NCBI GenBank assembly: GCA_965249275.1
Contig: CBDFLQ010000007.1
Span: 896,001 to 960,000, forward strand
Reading direction: 5' to 3'
DNA from: Dehalococcoidia bacterium
Lineage (GTDB): Bacteria > Chloroflexota > Dehalococcoidia > Plut-88900
Length of the DNA stretch: 64,000 bases
Shown here: one piece after another, positions 5,311-53,961 of the stretch
Position numbering within the stretch: the stretch's first letter is position 1
Layout: the number at the start of each line of letters is the position of its first letter
Translations under genes and position numbers: made by a program
The notes under the pieces: generated by a model
What the model saw: only the letters and a program-made list of their open reading frames with translations
Database searches by the model: none
Told to the model about the DNA's origin: nothing

Positions 5311-5430
5311 GCTCACCCTGAGCCCCATCGAAGGGTCGAGCAGGGGGGTGGTCCCGCACTGCCAATCCGTCGCGCCCGCCTCCACCCCAACCCCCTTAAC
5401 CCTGTCATTCCGAGGCTCCGCGAGGAATCT
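5311..5430. repeat. Cluster of REP-like short palindromes
   Basis: GCTCACCCTGAGC..TCGAAGGG.CGAGC (5311-5341) and TGTCATTCCGAGG..CGCGAGGAATCT (5403-5430) resemble REP-type hairpins; only single copies in window. Confidence 0.45.
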
Positions 5431-5432
5431 AG

Positions 5433-6628
5433 GAAACCTCTGAACAAGTCTAAGGGCATAGGTAATAGGTAAGATAGGGAGAGTAAGGCCAAAGCTGAGG
5501 TGAGATTTGATGGAGCAGCCGACATTTGCAGACTTGGAATACGAGGGCAAGAAGCGAAAGACCCGCCGGGAGATATTTCTGGAGCGGATGGAGGACCTGG
5601 TTCCATGGGGAAAGTTAGAGGAGCGAATCCGGCCCTACTATTCCAGGGCGGGCCGTGGACGGAGGCCCTACGAGTTGTCGGTGATGCTGCGGATACACTG
5701 CGTGCAGCTGTTCTACAACCTGAGCGATCCGGGCATGGAGGACATGCTCTACGAGGTGGAGTCGGTGAGGCGGTTCGCAGGTCTGAGGCTGTCCGGCCCC
5801 TTGCCTGACGAGACTACGATACTGAACTTCCGCCATCTGCTGGAAGAGCAGGAGTTGGGTCGGGGGCTGTTCGAGGAGATCAACCGTCATCTGGAGTCTC
5901 GGGGACTGAGGCTCAGGGAGGGTACGATTGTGGATGCGAGCATCATCGAGGCGCCGGCGTCTACGAAGAACCGTGCTGGAGAGCGAGACCCCGATATGCA
6001 CCAAGTGAAGAAGGGGAAGGAGTGGCACTTCGGTATGAAAGTGCACATTGGTGCAGACGCTGACACGGGGGTGGTGCACAGTATGAGTACGACAGCTGCG
6101 AACGTGCATGACGTGACGGAGGCGCACCGGCTGCTGCATGGAGGGGAGAGGCGAGTGTGGGGAGATGCGGGATATCAGGGAGTGGAGAAGCGGGCGGAGA
6201 ATCGGGATATGGATGTGGAGTGGCGGGTGGCGATGAGACCTGGACGGCGTCGGAAACTGAGGGCGGGGAGCTGCGAGGCCTTAGCGGAGAAGAGCAAATC
6301 ATCCATCAGGGCTAAGGTGGAGCATCCGTTCCTGTACGTGAAACGGCACTTCGGCTACGCCAAGGTCCGCTACAGGGGCTTGTACAAGAACACGCAACGG
6401 GTGGCGATGCTGCTGGGGCTGGCCAACTTGGTAAGGGCCGAGCGCCACTTAGCGGTGTGACGGAGGAGCAGTGTGGTCAAATCCGGGTCGATGGTGACTG
6501 GATGCCCTGACAGGCCAGAACATAGGATGCAAATAAGCCACCGAGACGCAACATTACGACCCAACCTCTCCCCAAAACTCCATGCAAGACAACCTAAGCT
6601 GGTTTACAGTGAGTTGTTCAGAGCTTCC
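5433..6628 (+). mobile_element. IS5-family insertion sequence, copy 1 (1196 bp)
   Basis: IRs GAAACCTCTGAACAAGTC / GGAAGCTCTGAACAACTC, flanking CTAG duplication (5429-5432, 6629-6632), near-identical copy at 50485-51680. Confidence 0.95.
5507..6460 (+). CDS. IS5-family DDE transposase
   Basis: PDETTILNFRHLLE, IVDASII, GMKVHIG.D, WGDAGYQG, RAKVEHPF...KVRYRGL.KN. Confidence 0.97.
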   Translation: MMEQPTFADLEYEGKKRKTRREIFLERMEDLVPWGKLEERIRPYYSRAGRGRRPYELSVMLRIHCVQLFYNLSDPGMEDMLYEVESVRRFAGLRLSGPLPDETTILNFRHLLEEQELGRGLFEEINRHLESRGLRLREGTIVDASIIEAPASTKNRAGERDPDMHQVKKGKEWHFGMKVHIGADADTGVVHSMSTTAANVHDVTEAHRLLHGGERRVWGDAGYQGVEKRAENRDMDVEWRVAMRPGRRRKLRAGSCEALAEKSKSSIRAKVEHPFLYVKRHFGYAKVRYRGLYKNTQRVAMLLGLANLVRAERHLAV

Positions 6629-6685
6629 CTAGGACTTGCCCTTTCACACCATTCCTCGCCTTCCTTTCCCTCCCCCATTGGTAAC

Positions 6686-6726: not shown

Positions 6727-6807
6727 AATAAAACAGGGCGGGTGGGCGGGACTCAATATATCCCTGAGGGTGGTGAGGGGTGTCCCCCCAAATGTGACAC
6801 GAACCCC

Positions 6808-6837
6808 TTGACCAGAGTTGTACACATGTACTATATT
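6808..6837 (+). promoter_or_regulatory. sigma70 promoter with LexA-type operator
   Basis: TTGACC-18 nt-TATATT; GTAC-acat-GTAC (6820-6831) abuts the -10; same layout at 53593-53622. Confidence 0.7.
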
Positions 6838-6842
6838 CACCC

Positions 6843-7460
6843 CCGACTAGCTCGTCACTCACCCTAATCCCAAGGAGGAACCACAACCCAGGGGGAACCA
6901 CATCCCCGGCCCACACGAGGACTCAACGTCCAAGCCCATCCCAAAGGGCGGCCCACACGCCGCCCCACGGCTCAAGCAAACGCCGCCATCTCCTCATACC
7001 AAGGGCCCCGGCTCACCCCTCCCCCCACCACCCAGGCGATGGAAGGTCCACAGACTATGCTCGGCAGGCCCCGTCCAGGGCCCCTGCCGATTCAACGCTT
7101 CCCATTACCGGATGCGTTTACCCCGGCCCATTGCGCGCCGGTTTCCCGGGTAGGTCAACCAACCCCCGGTTTAGCAAGGTCCTCGTGTCCTTGTTTGTCC
7201 CGCCATCCCCGCCATCCGTCTACCCGGCGGATGCACCGGGACGCCGGTTATGAAAGTCCGCCTCAGGCGGTATCTTCCCCGTCAGCGGTCCGGTCAAGTG
7301 CCGCTGCCGGTAGGATCGGCCCCACACAACCCTGACCGCAGCCGACAACATGTGGGGATAGTCCAGCCCGGTGCCGACGGCTCGGCAGCAACCCCCGGTC
7401 TGAATTCTAGTCACCGGACCTTCCATCGCCTGCCCCCTACAAACAAAACGGAACCCCAAA
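6843..7460 (+). ncRNA. Candidate large structured ncRNA, copy A (unassigned family; ends approximate)
   Basis: Collinear sequence blocks shared with 52950-53587(-); 17-bp perfect long-range stem 7033-7049/7416-7432; many internal hairpins; no conserved ORF. Confidence 0.6.
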
Positions 7461-7565
7461 CGCCAACTGAATAAACACCGTCCCCTCCCCCTGGTTGCGT
7501 GATACACTTCATCCAACCCCATCCCCTGAGCCTTTCCGCCATCCCTTATGGAGGTGCCGACGCCC

Positions 7566-13557: not shown

Positions 13558-13918
13558 AAGTCGGGAGAGGCTTTTACCAGTTCGAATCCAGGCAGGTGGA
13601 CTCCGACACTAAATCCCGCTTACAGTGGCGCTACCGCGGCGGCTTTTCACCGCCTTCCCTATTCTCCCTGGATGGGCACCTGAACGGGGAGTGGTCTGTG
13701 TTTATGATTTGGAGTTGAGGATATTGGCACGGGAGCGAAGTGTCAAGGGTCGGCATTAGTACGGGATTTCTGTTGCTTTTGGCTATGGCGTGGTTACACA
13801 ATGTTGCGTGATTTGGCAGGTAGGCGACATCATCTGTAAGCCGAGCGAGATAACAGCACTGTTTTGCGACTGAATCGGGCGACATTGTTCCGCTACGCCA
13901 CGAGGATTTCCAGCTAGC

Positions 13919-35824: not shown

Positions 35825-35915
<91 letters not shown>

Positions 35916-43097: not shown

Positions 43098-43172
43098 GCC
43101 CCCGTAGCTCAGAGGATAGAGCGCCAGCCTCCGGAGCTGGAAGCGTGGGTTCGAGTCCCGCCGGGGGTACCA
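43098..43172 (+). tRNA. tRNA-Arg(CCG)
   Basis: GCCCCCG acceptor stem, CCAGC-CT-CCG-GA-GCTGG anticodon arm, GGTTCGAGTCC, 3' ACCA. Confidence 0.97.
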
Positions 43173-50452: not shown

Positions 50453-50484
50453 TCCCGGCCGGGTCTTAACGGTTGACGATCTAG

Positions 50485-51680
50485 GAAACCTCTGAACAAG
50501 TCTAAGGGCATAGGTAATAGGTAAGATAAGGAGAGTAAGGCCAAAGCTGAGGTGAGATTTGATGGAGCAGCCGACATTTGCAGACTTGGAATACGAGGGC
50601 AAGAAGCGAAAGACCCGCCGGGAGATATTTCTGGAGCGGATGGAGGACCTGGTTCCATGGGGAAAGTTAGAGGAGCGAATCCGGCCCTACTATTCCAGGG
50701 CGGGCCGTGGACGGAGGCCCTACGAGTTGTCGGTGATGCTGCGGATACACTGCGTGCAGCTGTTCTACAACCTGAGCGATCCGGGCATGGAGGACATGCT
50801 CTACGAGGTGGAGTCGGTGAGGCGGTTCGCAGGTCTGAGGCTGTCCGGCCCCTTGCCTGACGAGACTACGATACTGAACTTCCGCCATCTGCTGGAAGAG
50901 CAGGAGTTGGGTCGGGGGCTGTTCGAGGAGATCAACCGTCATCTGGAGTCTCGGGGACTGAGGCTCAGGGAGGGTACGATTGTGGATGCGAGCATCATCG
51001 AGGCGCCGGCGTCTACGAAGAACCGTGCTGGAGAGCGAGACCCCGATATGCACCAGGTGAAGAAGGGGAAGGAGTGGCACTTCGGTATGAAAGTGCACAT
51101 TGGTGCAGACGCTGACACGGGGGTGGTGCACAGTATGAGTACGACAGCTGCGAACGTGCATGACATGACGGAGGCGCACCGGCTGCTGCATGGAGGGGAG
51201 AGGCGAGTGTGGGGAGATGCGGGATATCAGGGAGTGGAGAAGCGGGCGGAGAATCGGGATATGGATGTGGAGTGGCGGGTGGCGATGAGACCTGGACGGC
51301 GTCGGAAACTGAGGGCGGGGAGCTGCGAGGCCTTGGCGGAGAAGAGCAAATCATCCATCAGGGCTAAGGTGGAGCATCCGTTCCTGTACGTGAAACGGCA
51401 CTTCGGCTACGCCAAGGTCCGCTACAGGGGCTTGTACAAGAACACGCAACGGGTGGCGATGCTGCTGGGGCTGGCCAACTTGGTAAGGGCCGAGCGCCAC
51501 TTAGCGGTGTGACGGAGGAGCAGTGTGGTCAAATCCGGGTCGATGGTGACTGGATGCCCTGACAGGCCAGAACATAGGATGCAAATAAGCCACCGAGACG
51601 CAACATTACGACCCAACCTCTCCCCAAAACTCCATGCAAGACAACCTAAGCTGGTTTACAGTGAGTTGTTCAGAGCTTCC
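50485..51680 (+). mobile_element. IS5-family insertion sequence, copy 2 (1196 bp)
   Basis: Same IRs as copy 1; CTAG duplication at 50481-50484 and 51681-51684. Confidence 0.95.
50559..51512 (+). CDS. IS5-family DDE transposase
   Basis: Identical to 5507-6460 except HDVT to HDMT. Confidence 0.97.
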   Translation: MMEQPTFADLEYEGKKRKTRREIFLERMEDLVPWGKLEERIRPYYSRAGRGRRPYELSVMLRIHCVQLFYNLSDPGMEDMLYEVESVRRFAGLRLSGPLPDETTILNFRHLLEEQELGRGLFEEINRHLESRGLRLREGTIVDASIIEAPASTKNRAGERDPDMHQVKKGKEWHFGMKVHIGADADTGVVHSMSTTAANVHDMTEAHRLLHGGERRVWGDAGYQGVEKRAENRDMDVEWRVAMRPGRRRKLRAGSCEALAEKSKSSIRAKVEHPFLYVKRHFGYAKVRYRGLYKNTQRVAMLLGLANLVRAERHLAV

Positions 51681-51705
51681 CTAGAACACCCCTGCACCCT
51701 TTAGG

Positions 51706-52245: not shown

Positions 52246-52949
52246 TGTGTACCCTTCAATCTTAGGCTGCCCCGGGCGACGGAGCGAGAAGCTCCGTCGG
52301 TATGATTCGTTGCTAGTGCGTCGCTCCGCGTCATCGCCGCTTTCCTTCCTCCAATTGTTCTTGAAGTTGGGCCAACGTACGCATAATAATTTAGCGAGAG
52401 AGTTGTCAGGCTAGATAGTCCTGTTACAGACGGTAGGCTCCGTGCAGGATTGATCGTATGGCCAGTTTTCTTCAGCCTTTTATCCTTCCAGCCCGCTGTA
52501 TTGCCCTTGACTGGCGCCCAGCTGATCGGCCAATCTCAATCCTCTAAGCTAAGCTGCCTTTGTGCACAGCGTAGATAACCTAAGGCGAAGGTCGCGGGAA
52601 TTGAGGGTGGGGATGTGGGGGGCGCTAGCACTGTGACGAAATACGTTTGGGGAGAAGCAGGATGATTTCGGCTTGCTGGCCGTGGGAGCAGCCAGCACAA
52701 CCCTCATGGTTATGCCGTCTGTGGTCATCGTGCATTCCCTAGAATTACTGCACTCCGTGTCCCATTCCAAGCCCACCCAAACATGCCCAGTATAGTTGGT
52801 CGGCAACGAAGACCTGCCCCAGAATGCTGGAGCTTGATGTAGTCGTGGGTCAGTCTACATCGCCAAGAGGATGTGCCGCAAGCTGATGTATTCGTTCGAT
52901 AGATTAGTGACACACTGGCCTTTTCTTCAGTCCTCCAGAGGCGGATCTT

Positions 52950-53587
52950 CGATTGTGGGGTTTCGGTTTCAGTTCTGTCTGTTAGGTTTTGGGAAGGCGA
53001 TGAAAGACGCTTGCTGGATTCGGCTCCCTACATTTAGATAATGCGGGCTAGGAGGCGTCCCGGGAGCGTGGGACGGGGCTCCGCCGCCGCCTAGACCTGG
53101 AAGTATGGTCGGACGTACGGGTCCGTCATCCGTCATAGGCTCCGATGCAGGGTTGGCTGCGCTGTCCGCCTGAGGCGGGTGCAGGAAGGGGAAAGTCCAG
53201 GGTCAGTTCCCCTCGCAGGAGTACGGGGTATCCAGTTAGCCGACGATGTCCCGGAGCCGGGAGACGGCGGCAGCCCAGTTTATTTGAGGAAGCGGACGGA
53301 GAGCCGAGCGGGCCTCGGCTACGGGCTGCCCCGTTCCGCTCCGTAGGACGGGTTGCTCCGTGAGGAGACTTTTAAGTACGATCCAGGGCGTCTTCCATCG
53401 CCTGGGGGTCAGGGAAGGGGGCACGGGACCCGGTGGGGATGAGGAGATGGCGACTTTCGCTTGTGCCGCGGGCCTGCGCGGGGGCCGTTGGGATGGGCTT
53501 AGGCGTTGAGTCCTCGGGCGGGTCGGGTGGGCTCCCCTGGGTGTTGGGTTCCTCCTTAAGGTAGTTGGGTTAGGTGGTCTAGACCTG
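52950..53587 (-). ncRNA. Candidate large structured ncRNA, copy B (unassigned family; ends approximate)
   Basis: Collinear blocks shared with 6843-7460(+); 16-bp stem 53388-53403/52995-53010 with compensatory changes and one G-U on the minus strand. Confidence 0.6.
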
Positions 53588-53592
53588 GCTAC

Positions 53593-53622
53593 AATATAGA
53601 ACATAAGTACTTATAATGTCAA
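53593..53622 (-). promoter_or_regulatory. sigma70 promoter with LexA-type operator
   Basis: Minus strand TTGACA-18 nt-TATATT; GTAC-ttat-GTTC (53599-53610) abuts the -10. Confidence 0.8.
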
Positions 53623-53961
53623 GAGGGTGATGCCACCCCTCTATGTGAACGGGATCAGCTGATGTATATCCTTAACAATAGGGTGTCGCTGCTAGCTCAA
53701 ACTAAAAGCATCATAGATTTATGATGATATAATCAACGACCAGATGGCCCCACCACTGGTCGAGAGATGTTCGGCTGGCAATCGTCAGGTCAAAAAATGG
53801 CGGACCCGGCTTACTTTGAGGTCACCTCAATTAAGCTGGGAGCATTTTGGACTGGATCTTCGGACCACGGAAACCTCGTGCGGGCGATTAGAGTGTCATA
53901 AGGACCTGCCCGCGTGAGATTGCGACTGTTCCTCTCGTCGCAGGGTGTTGGAGATTAGCAG

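Follow-up and report, generated by a model that had tools for sequence, protein, structure and literature searches.

A stem-bounded, exchangeable central domain in a probable large RNA carried by a protein-less mobile element of Dehalococcoidia

The long-range stem seen in two related segments (copies A and B) of a 64,000-nucleotide stretch of a Dehalococcoidia genome, here called the window, probably closes the central domain of a ~0.6–0.7 kb non-coding RNA, which would be transcribed from a near-consensus sigma-70-type promoter within a protein-less transposable element with inverted ends. The RNA is made up of a constant 5' scaffold, a closing helix of 15–20 bp, a central domain of 290–522 nt and an A/C-rich tail.

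Extent and distribution of the element

The element is non-coding and ~0.75 kb long, and 54 copies of it are found in the 2.9-Mb genome that contains the window, copies A and B being two of the 54. At ~0.7 kb per copy, the element accounts for ~1.3% of the DNA. Copy B in full occupies 52887–53657 (771 bp) on the minus strand, and the range flagged at the outset, 52950–53622, truncates this unit at both ends (Table 1). The outer boundaries of copy A are approximate because it has no recognisable terminal repeats. Among 17 elements delimited end to end, 15 measure 739–902 bp and the remaining two are composites of 1029 and 1199 bp.

Searches for a known identity were negative. Copy B holds no ORF and, according to ARAGORN, no tRNA-like gene. 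Rfam 15, whose families include group II introns, ribozymes, GOLLD, ROOL, OLE, raiA, HEARO, 6S and retron RNAs, gave no match in the 64-kb window at the gathering score and nothing meaningful on either copy at E values up to 10, blastn of the element against PLSDB plasmids and INPHARED phages returned no match, and a surface-level literature search found no paper on the family. Between copies of one type, the scaffold varies by indels of 1 and 2 nt, which bears on any coding reading.

The element was detected in all eight other genomes of the genus, with dozens of matches per sister genome, and in none of the three other genera of the family or the 29 other families searched. A covariance model (R1), run on 151 genomes of the class, gave matches confined to the genus apart from two weak hits outside it. 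These two hits (32 and 29 bits) are G+C-rich, resemble each other and lack the conserved blocks, and were read as chance. The host organisms are uncultured Dehalococcoidia.

Table 1. Positions in the window of the parts of copy B, and the extent of copy A
Feature	Position	Strand	Basis or remark
5' copy of the 5-bp target-site duplication, TCAGC	53658..53662	-	same 5 nt on either side of the element
5' terminal inverted repeat, 35 nt, TGATCCCGTTCACATAGAGG... then GTGGCA box	53623..53657	-	abuts the -35
Sigma-70-type promoter TTGACA-18-TATATT, 11/12 matches	53593..53622	-	every copy examined shows this block conserved
Shine-Dalgarno-like AAGGAGGAA in the 5' leader, conserved, predicted exposed	53549..53557	-	
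Conserved 80-nt core module of the 5' scaffold, GAGGACUCAACG...GCCAUCUCCUC, with covarying hairpin	53439..53518	-	R1, 101 bits
5' arm of the long-range closing stem, AGGCGAUGGAAGACGC	53388..53403	-	inverted-repeat search, RNAfold
Central cassette, 377 nt, type I1	53011..53387	-	clustering of enclosed domains
3' arm of the closing stem, GCGUCUUUCAUCGCCU, one G-U	52995..53010	-	inverted-repeat search
A/C-rich, G-poor 3' tail, predicted largely unpaired, with small CCGCCUCUGGAGGA hairpin module	52916..52994	-	
3' terminal inverted repeat, ...GTGTGTCACTAATCTATCGAACGAATACA	52887..52915	-	
3' copy of the target-site duplication, TCAGC	52882..52886	-	
Host promoter-like site TTGCGG-18-TAGACT directly after the duplication	52852..52881	-	-35 match only 3/6 here
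Copy A, short-ended, cassette type I0	6790..7475	+	promoter 6808-6837; arms 7033-7049 and 7416-7432

The closing stem

The earlier note, made from the letters of the window, described in each copy a pair of distant arms enclosing a domain of some 370 nt, and both stems were recovered. The 16-nt arms of copy B are 94% complementary as DNA, forming 15 Watson–Crick pairs and one G-U on the minus (promoter) strand around 377 nt; because of the position of this G-U, an inverted-repeat search with a 9-nt seed misses the stem that a 7-nt seed detects. In copy A, 17 perfect pairs surround 366 nt and form the core of longer arms at 7033–7057 and 7408–7432 (25 nt, 88%). The inner pairs differ between the copies yet pair in both (GGTCC/GGACC in A, GACGC/GCGTC in B), and the enclosed domains, as had been claimed, are similar in length and align poorly. 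The motif GGCGATGRAAG occurs four times in the window against 0.12 expected, a count that none of 100 shuffles reached.

The stem was also followed beyond copies A and B. The 10-bp core GGCGATGGAA/TTCCATCGCC was located in 53 of the 54 genome copies; the 54th is cut by a contig end, and the stem counts rest on the 53. Of 530 core cells, 504 are Watson–Crick, 19 G-U (many of these inherited), 2 A-C and 5 other, and the core is fully paired in 46/53 copies. Among copies from the eight other genomes, 27 retain the core by a simple motif search and one more retains it through a compensated change, while in one the 3' arm has decayed and contains three mismatches that are not compensated. Across its outer 10 bp the stem hardly varies, and compensated changes arose there twice independently: GGCAAUGGAA/UUCCAUUGCC in L058, for which L053 holds an A-C intermediate, and GCGACGGA/UCCGUCGC in L076. 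The outer 10 bp of the helix are part of the constant frame, and the inner 5–10 bp go with the central domain and change when it does. The inner-pair difference between copies A and B is a difference between cassette types and therefore represents few events, not many.

Central cassettes and their reshuffling

The picture of a constant scaffold with a variable structured module bounded by the stem holds for the family, but the idea of a separate cargo for each copy does not: clustering of the enclosed domains from 80 copies yields 11 discrete types (seven of them with 6–17 members) that recur across several species. The cassette of copy B clusters with 14 other copies from three genomes (G000, G001 and G004), and two more copies of its type, I1, are found one each in G002 and G005. 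Nested small repeats account for part of the variation in cassette length, and one cassette holds a 133-nt insert that is 100% identical to two other sites. When cassettes were matched to the rest of the genome, just other copies and nested small repeats appeared and no candidate antisense target; a motif common to all cassette types was not found, the best 8-mer being present in 6/11 types.

The 11 cassette types are older than the species, and their history differs from that of the 5' scaffold. In 32/53 copies, the nearest 5' scaffold belongs to a copy with a different cassette type. Mapped onto the scaffold tree, the cassette label changes 27 times, with a minimum of 9 and 34.5 ± 1.8 for shuffled labels, and AU tests reject monophyly on this tree for I1 (7e-10), I2 (4.5e-11) and I0 (7.5e-5). 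At one orthologous insertion shared by G002 and G000, cassette and tail are 96% and 95% identical and the scaffold only 80%. Similarity between I1 and I2 copies stops 10–13 nt inside the arms. Elements at the same sites in G005 carry other cassettes, with scaffolds only 84–87% identical, which could reflect a hot spot that was hit more than once instead of cassette exchange in situ.

Mobility and target choice

What the earlier account lacked was the mobility of the whole unit, seen in inverted ends, a duplicated target and unoccupied sites in sister species. The ends of the element read TG...CA, its insertion duplicates 5 bp of target, and orthologous sites are occupied in some species and vacant in others. 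Copy B has imperfect inverted ends of this kind and the duplication TCAGC; its 5' terminal box reads GTGGCA, with GTGACA in most copies. A 20-nt end motif matches exactly at G000:C7:949657, in the 5' terminal inverted repeat. Aligned to each other without a gap, the two ends agree at 10/29 positions, and with one gap, in an alignment made by eye rather than by computation, they share 8 of the first 11 nt and the GTGACA box. Both end motifs occur at full-length copies; many copies, copy A included, have no recognisable ends and may therefore be immobile. Across the 17 end-to-end elements, the target duplication is perfect (5/5) in 10 and 4/5 in two; the other five, with at most 2 matches, have no duplication. 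Clean empty sites exist in G003 for two elements, each retaining one copy of the duplicated 5 nt, and the same two elements are likewise missing at both sites in G001 and G008. Copy B is present in G002 and absent from its site in G003 and G005, where a 27-nt look-alike of the 3' end means that the locus may record a deletion and not an insertion.

Insertions share a single orientation and place the 3' end of the element 5 bp upstream of the -35 hexamer of a host promoter. At least four of six matches to TTGACA occur exactly at offset +5 from the 3' end in 17/27 elements, against 0–1 at the other 11 offsets tested, and TAnnnT follows 16–19 nt beyond the -35 in 23/27. An empty site in G003 displays a pre-existing tRNA promoter.

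None of the 22 integrase-core (rve) matches falls within any copy, and one of them, of ~1.06 kb, adjoins the 1199-bp composite. The genome that contains the window holds three IS481-like IS families with TGTA ends, one of which gives a 5-bp duplication. The best candidate for a source of transposase is the 1.06-kb IS481-like IS: its ends match the reverse complement of the element's 3' end at 18/29 positions (shuffle P ~0.001) and the 5' end at 7/29. The target of this IS is not the same: it enters ATTCC within a repeat of another kind. MITEs are usually well under 600 bp, a size that 739–902 bp exceeds; the more cautious names are 'mobile insertion cassette' or non-autonomous element.

Transcription, tail and fold

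Judged from the promoter sequence, transcription of copy B probably starts near 53586. The AAGGAGGAA block is invariant within each of four cassette-type consensuses and unpaired in three of the four consensus folds, and no start codon lies downstream of it in copies A and B. The 50 nt directly following the arm, taken across 53 copies, have the composition A 0.42, C 0.40, G 0.09 and T 0.085, and the tail is unpaired in the consensus folds. An intrinsic terminator was looked for in copy B and none was found. All eight other genomes of the genus carry a gene with the Rho RNA-binding domain; a search for one in the assembly that contains the window, which is 87% complete, was negative.

Metatranscriptome contigs from four studies map onto the RNA body; these are assembled contigs with possible DNA content and show neither strand nor ends. 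A 534-nt contig spans both arms and the cassette of a copy of another cassette type, and one contig extends beyond a 3' end into the flank, an observation hard to reconcile with transcription always ending in the tail. Contigs at least 90% alike cover none of 53573–53706 (promoter and 5' flank), nothing below 52836 and little of 53519–53586; as the family is multi-copy and the contigs are assemblies, nothing is inferred from these gaps or from the points where contigs stop.

Folding of copy B on the promoter strand (701 nt, RNAfold) recovered the long-range stem, at an MFE of -246 kcal/mol (z = -2.24, 0/20 shuffles as good); for the opposite strand z = +0.91, with 15/20 shuffles as good. Each of the seven cassette-type alignments contains 5 to 19 compensated pairs. 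For type I1, RNAalifold on 13 copies (11 of copy B's own cluster together with the G002 and G005 copies) gives 110 pairs including the closing stem, three of them with compensated changes; most pairs never vary, and the structural case for this type rests on conservation, not covariation. In the scaffold, the helix GAGGA/UCCUC and the hairpin pair in 96.1% of cells versus 51–61% when slid, and the scaffold helices reach a covariation score of 0.158 against 0.069 for shuffles (0/500 as high), in a test for which the two helices were supplied by hand. The RNAalifold consensus of the 80-nt core alone is poor because MAFFT misaligned the variable hairpin.

The earlier argument that G-U pairing favours RNA of the promoter strand is mildly supported by the core of the stem, where 19 G-U stand against 2 A-C. 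Extended to all predicted helices, the same test was set aside: the strand-neutral count of 79 G-U versus 53 A-C is too weak to decide. RNAalifold has a built-in preference for G-U on the strand it is given, and it finds more pairs in the antisense, which is rich in G, than in the sense. Promoter direction and the fold z-scores weigh more than G-U counts for the choice of strand.

A working model

On the model that we favour, an IS481-family transposase would mobilise the element in trans. The conserved arms of the helix and the 10–13 nt just inside them would serve as homology tracts at which recombination or gene conversion between copies swaps cassettes, and at the RNA level the helix would let each cassette fold as an independent, insulated domain. 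The RNA appears designed for abundance and stability. The exposed Shine-Dalgarno-like box may act as a 5' stabiliser and the G-poor, C-rich tail as a Rho loading site, such that transcription would stop before the host promoter and the 3' end would then be trimmed back to the closing helix; both of these roles are assumptions that we draw from textbook knowledge. A more far-reaching proposal, which we offer tentatively and consider doubtful, is that a promoter-homing transposon family spreads a large-RNA platform, in which a constant scaffold and closing helix present at least 11 cassettes (300–500 nt) swapped at the arms, and in which every cassette type acts in trans in a way of its own, such as by binding or decoying a distinct partner. 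On that proposal, the family would be a naturally occurring system for exchanging cassettes of large non-coding RNAs, with 54 strong-promoter copies in this genome of ~3 Mb and dozens in each sister genome, and its carrier would be a DDE transposon that takes the -35 hexamer as its target.

Alternative explanations

Two other readings also give the stem a role at the RNA level. As a processing stem, it would be cleaved by an RNase III-type enzyme or circularised, freeing the cassette as a linear or circular RNA. A continuous helix of 15–20 bp is long enough for RNase III, and the genus-wide invariance of its sequence suggests more than simple pairing; in transcripts, hairpins that the ends of Correia elements form are cut by RNase III, according to PMC10969869. 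The 534-nt contig, however, runs continuously through both arms and the cassette, and among the mapped contigs, which by their nature would not reveal such ends, there is no back-spliced joint and no cluster of ends at the arms. We regard processing as unlikely, although it could join the main explanation as a further step. Of far lower probability, indeed hardly credible, is a template for a reverse transcriptase, retron-like or used in trans, as the earlier note had proposed by analogy with the inverted a1/a2 arms that flank the structured region of retron non-coding RNAs. The co-occurrence check does not support it: RVT_1 (Pfam) is found in only 3/9 genomes of the genus, whereas all nine carry dozens of copies; it was not found in the genome that contains the window, and no RT gene adjoins the copies examined.

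The remaining readings remove the RNA from the explanation or tie it to a neighbour. If the element were simply a long MITE with an outward promoter, its structure would be a by-product of G+C-rich repeats or of DNA hairpins. Promoter-bearing MITEs are indeed on record (PMC10969869), covariation within type I1 is sparse and the antisense gives even more RNAalifold pairs. Against this stand the compensated changes in every cassette type and, with controls, in the scaffold hairpin, the two such changes in an otherwise invariant core stem, a sense fold that beats its own shuffles where the antisense does not, cassette types conserved across species, and the retention of promoter, scaffold and stem by copies that have lost their ends; the absence of any RNA-level function is accordingly judged improbable. 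A similarly small probability, a shade lower, is given to the arms being the inverted ends of a second small element nested in a repeated scaffold, with the cassettes as unrelated insertions. That an inverted repeat of 16–25 nt surrounds a variable 290–522 nt, that cassettes are reshuffled among scaffolds and that some contain nested small repeats would all suit such an origin. Yet all 53 complete copies are filled at the same scaffold position and no unfilled scaffold was seen, the nucleotides outside the arms show no duplication, and exact arm 10-mers number 80 inside copies and 11 outside against 6.8 expected, several of those outside being element fragments. The inner extension of the stem, moreover, pairs in every type, and the excess of G-U over A-C (19 vs 2) is what RNA pairing predicts. 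Finally, a cis-acting leader or riboswitch of the downstream gene is disfavoured and very improbable. In its favour, the element always points at a promoter and gene lying downstream and lacks a terminator. Against it, these genes are unrelated to one another, two of them being tRNA genes, a host promoter sits between element and gene, and orthologous genes may have the element or lack it.

Relation to known elements and RNAs

The closest parallels to the element as a whole are the promoter-bearing prokaryotic MITEs, namely the Correia elements of Neisseria, MITEAba12, BrickBuilt, QMITE1 and SonMITE_1 (reviewed in PMC10969869). As portrayed there, these are likewise protein-less and multi-copy, with inverted ends, a target duplication, an internal sigma-70-like promoter and a position upstream of genes, and their transcripts form hairpins cleavable by RNase III, cleavage that in the present case is only conceivable. 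Compared with these MITEs, the element described here is several-fold longer, bears a ~650-nt structured RNA whose scaffold is conserved and whose central domain is exchangeable, has a pairing stem that is internal and not derived from the element ends, and lies in one orientation at a fixed 5-bp distance from -35 hexamers. A surface-level literature search found no description of a MITE with a ~650-nt exchangeable-core RNA, an internal stem or insertion at a set distance from the -35.

With IS481-family IS, the element shares TG...CA (TGTA-type) ends and short target duplications, but it has no transposase, the end similarity to the best candidate is only 18/29, and its target lies next to a promoter -35 and not, as for that candidate, at ATTCC inside a repeat. 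Its RNA resembles the large 'ornate' bacterial non-coding RNAs, whose functions are recent discoveries or still to be found (GOLLD, ROOL, OLE, raiA, HEARO/omega RNA), in its size of ~0.6–0.7 kb, multi-branched fold, conserved unpaired blocks and own promoter. Unlike them, it matches no Rfam model, occurs in 54 copies in the genome that contains the window on a DDE-type transposon carrier, is confined to a single genus among those searched and has a central domain in discrete alternative versions. Retron msr-msd RNAs similarly have inverted arms (a1/a2) closing a structured region; in contrast, the present RNA is four times longer and multi-copy, with no adjacent or co-occurring reverse transcriptase.

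Significance

If the favoured explanation is true, this would be among the most abundant families of large structured RNA genes of any bacterial genome, with a near-consensus promoter on every copy and no Rfam family. Discrete, exchangeable central versions bounded by an invariant helix would constitute a modular design not known to have been described for bacterial large RNAs, and the exchangeable domain would provide a direct handle on which part of the RNA does what. Insertion 5 bp upstream of -35 hexamers in one orientation would be a new target choice for a DDE-type element, offering a testable link between transposition and promoter architecture and possibly a tool for promoter-proximal insertion.

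Ends, target sites and distribution

Full-length copies of the element start with TGATCCCGTTCACATAGAGGGGTGACATCACCCCC, with the -35 hexamer immediately after, and terminate in ...GTGTGTCACTAATCTACCGAACGAGTACA. The 5-bp direct repeats around the 17 two-ended elements are perfect in 10, match at 4/5 positions in two and at two or fewer in five. For two elements other than copy B, the orthologous sites in G003, one of the eight other genomes of the genus, are clean and empty with a single copy of the 5 nt kept, and both sites also lack the element in G001 and G008. Copy B itself is present in G002 and absent from G003 and G005. In the latter two genomes the corresponding loci (L080 and L081, ~2195-2235; window counterpart 52882-52915) hold 27 nt that closely resemble the element 3' end, with TCAGC and then the host -35 after them; the other two empty sites examined are clean. 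These 27 nt could be what an earlier insertion left behind, or a deletion may have occurred here. Many copies, copy A included, have shorter ends amid other small repeats and retain the promoter, scaffold, stem and tail.

Insertion is directed towards promoters. Hexamers at offsets 0 to 11 were scored against TTGACA in the 27 elements whose 3' end could be recognised: at 5 nt past the end, 17/27 had at least 4/6 matches, as against 0 or 1 element at each of the remaining eleven offsets. TAnnnT lies 16-19 nt beyond the hexamer in 23/27 elements, and an empty site in G003 shows that a tRNA promoter there predates the insertion. The element thus sits in a single orientation, and its internal promoter fires in the direction of the host one. 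Separately, a solo 35-nt copy of the element 5' end abuts the -35 of the groES-groEL promoter, which a CIRCE-like inverted repeat follows. Two readings fit: an element was deleted there between two -35 hexamers and left this footprint, or the 35-mer itself serves as an upstream promoter element.

A blastn search with the 5' part returned 54 copies in the 2.9-Mb assembly of the organism itself (G000). All eight other genomes of the genus carry it as well (74-123 first-look candidates per genome); three other genera of the family and 29 further families of the class gave no match. A covariance model built on the 80 nt of highest conservation and searched in 151 genomes of the class matched within the genus only, bar two weak hits that look like chance. 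Neither Rfam nor plasmid and phage collections gave a match to the element, and literature searches gave no paper on the family. The RNA is a member of no described family.

Coordinates of the features discussed (window positions unless a contig is named)
Feature	Position	Strand	Remarks
Copy A stem arms	7033-7057 and 7408-7432	plus	contain the perfect 17 bp of the earlier note
Copy B stem arms	52995-53010 and 53388-53403	minus	16 nt; one G-U position on the minus strand; 377 nt between
Copy B promoter	53622-53593	minus	TTGACA-18-TATATT; 11/12 consensus match
Copy B full unit	52887-53657	minus	771 bp; flanked by two TCAGC copies
1.06-kb IS481-like IS	G000:C6:65042-66097		11 further copies; ends TGTAAGTGTTAGGTAATTCGTTGACAG
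1.2-kb IS, read as IS5-like	5427-6630 and 50478-51684		about 10 in genome
317-aa ORF of the 1.2-kb IS	50559-51512	plus	
Solo 35-nt element 5' end	G000:C6, about 928796-928830	minus	outside the window
133-nt small repeat	G000:C5 near 488538; C7:193085-193219; C5:734605-734737		100% identical at the three places
Rfam matches at gathering score: cobalamin riboswitch and two tRNA genes	13574-13698; 35828-35915; 43098-43169	minus; minus; plus	

The closing helix and its cassettes

The earlier note had described a covarying long-range stem around a variable cargo domain in copies A and B. A repeat search within the window confirmed the stem positions in both; its 11-nt core motif occurs four times against 0.12 expected. 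Aligned with each other, the two copies share a 5' part starting just upstream of the TTGAC -35, then the arms and the A/C-rich tail, and the interior between the arms aligns poorly. Across G000, 53 of the 54 copies have the 10-bp core GGCGATGGAA/TTCCATCGCC on both arms, 290-522 nt apart; a contig end truncates the 54th. Of 530 core-stem cells in these copies, 504 are Watson–Crick, 19 G-U, two A-C and five other. Pairing in the invariant core is backed independently by two compensated changes (L058, with an intermediate in L053, and L076) and by G-U outnumbering A-C 19:2. In L052, a copy from another genome of the genus, the 3' arm is decayed. The inner extension reads GGTCC/GGACC in cassette types I0, I3 and I5; in I1, I2, I4 and I6 it is GACGC/GCGTC, where a bulged A may or may not be present, and some types extend further. 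The inner pairs do differ between copies A and B and still pair, as had been noted, but since the extension goes with cassette type, this covariation is a difference between types.

The enclosed domain is variable, as proposed, but is not a unique cargo: 80 interiors, taken from nine genomes, sort into 11 types (17, 15, 10, 10, 9, 6, 6, 2, 2, 2 and 1 members) that recur in several species, copy A carrying I0 and copy B I1. No sequence motif common to all 11 was found. Nested small repeats explain part of the length variation; in the I1 cassette near 488538 on contig C5, a nested 133-nt repeat accounts for the 522-nt length.

The histories of scaffold and cassette differ. For 32/53 copies, the nearest 5' scaffold carries another cassette type, and a maximum-likelihood scaffold tree requires 27 changes of cassette label (minimum 9; 34.5 ± 1.8 on shuffling), with AU tests rejecting monophyly of I1, I2 and I0. 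Further, in one orthologous insertion compared between G002 and G000, cassette and tail are 96% and 95% identical and the scaffold 80%. Two promoter sites orthologous between G005 and G000 hold different cassettes (I7 in L093 versus I1 in L027; I1 in L097 versus I2 in L019), which could reflect cassette exchange within a resident element or renewed insertion at a hot spot. Copies of different types cease to be similar 10-13 nt inside the arms. Recombination between copies may use the conserved arms as homology tracts, and the helix would let each cassette fold independently while marking the boundary of exchange.

The proposed transcript

RNAfold recovered the proposed long-range stem on the promoter strand of copy B (z = -2.24, 0/20 shuffles as good), whereas the opposite strand did not beat its shuffles (z = +0.91, 15/20 as good). 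RNAalifold within cassette types gave 5-19 compensated pairs; type I1 is mostly invariant across species, and its compensated pairs number 3/110. In the 5' scaffold, two helices pass shuffle and slide controls for covariation. Five G004 copies (L036, L054, L061, L070 and L074) carry the 80-nt scaffold core module in tandem duplicate, and an additional hairpin, 20-45 nt long, is often inserted in the second module.

Metatranscriptome contigs from four studies match the copy B RNA body at 90-99%, and one of 534 nt spans the scaffold, both arms and another cassette type. As these are assembled contigs that show neither strand nor ends, from libraries that may contain DNA, they are consistent with transcription. 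No intrinsic terminator was found after the copy B promoter. One RNA-library contig continues past an element 3' end into the flank, which argues against complete termination.

Two conserved unpaired features suggest that the RNA is designed for abundance and containment. One is AAGGAGGAA, which is exposed, lacks a start codon after it and resembles the 5' stabilisers described in Bacillus; the other is the tail (C 0.40, G 0.09), which resembles a Rho loading site. A Rho gene was found in 8/8 sister genomes; its RNA-binding domain was not found in the G000 assembly (87% complete), probably an assembly gap.

Relation to insertion sequences and known systems

Candidate transposases for the element come from three IS families in G000, which score best as IS481 and have ends beginning TGTA. 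The ends of the 1.06-kb IS match the element 3' end at 18/29 positions (shuffle P about 0.001) and the 5' end at just 7/29. Its target also differs from that of the element, being ATTCC within another genome-wide repeat (GTCATTCCGAGGCTCCGCGAGGAATC), with 5 nt duplicated. The IS481 link is partial. The 1.2-kb IS, judged IS5-like from its sequence, has two copies in the window, one a short distance upstream of copy A and one about 1.2 kb away from copy B.

The reverse-transcriptase template role suggested in the earlier note did not hold up on co-occurrence with a reverse transcriptase. The carrier works in the manner of the promoter-bearing MITEs described in PMC10969869, as judged by its ends, target duplication, evidence of movement and lack of a transposase. 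It exceeds a MITE in size, and the 1.06-kb IS is a candidate parent. Collectively, these results establish a mobile, promoter-homing, protein-less element with a promoter, a conserved fold that includes the closing helix, and discrete, reshuffled cassettes.
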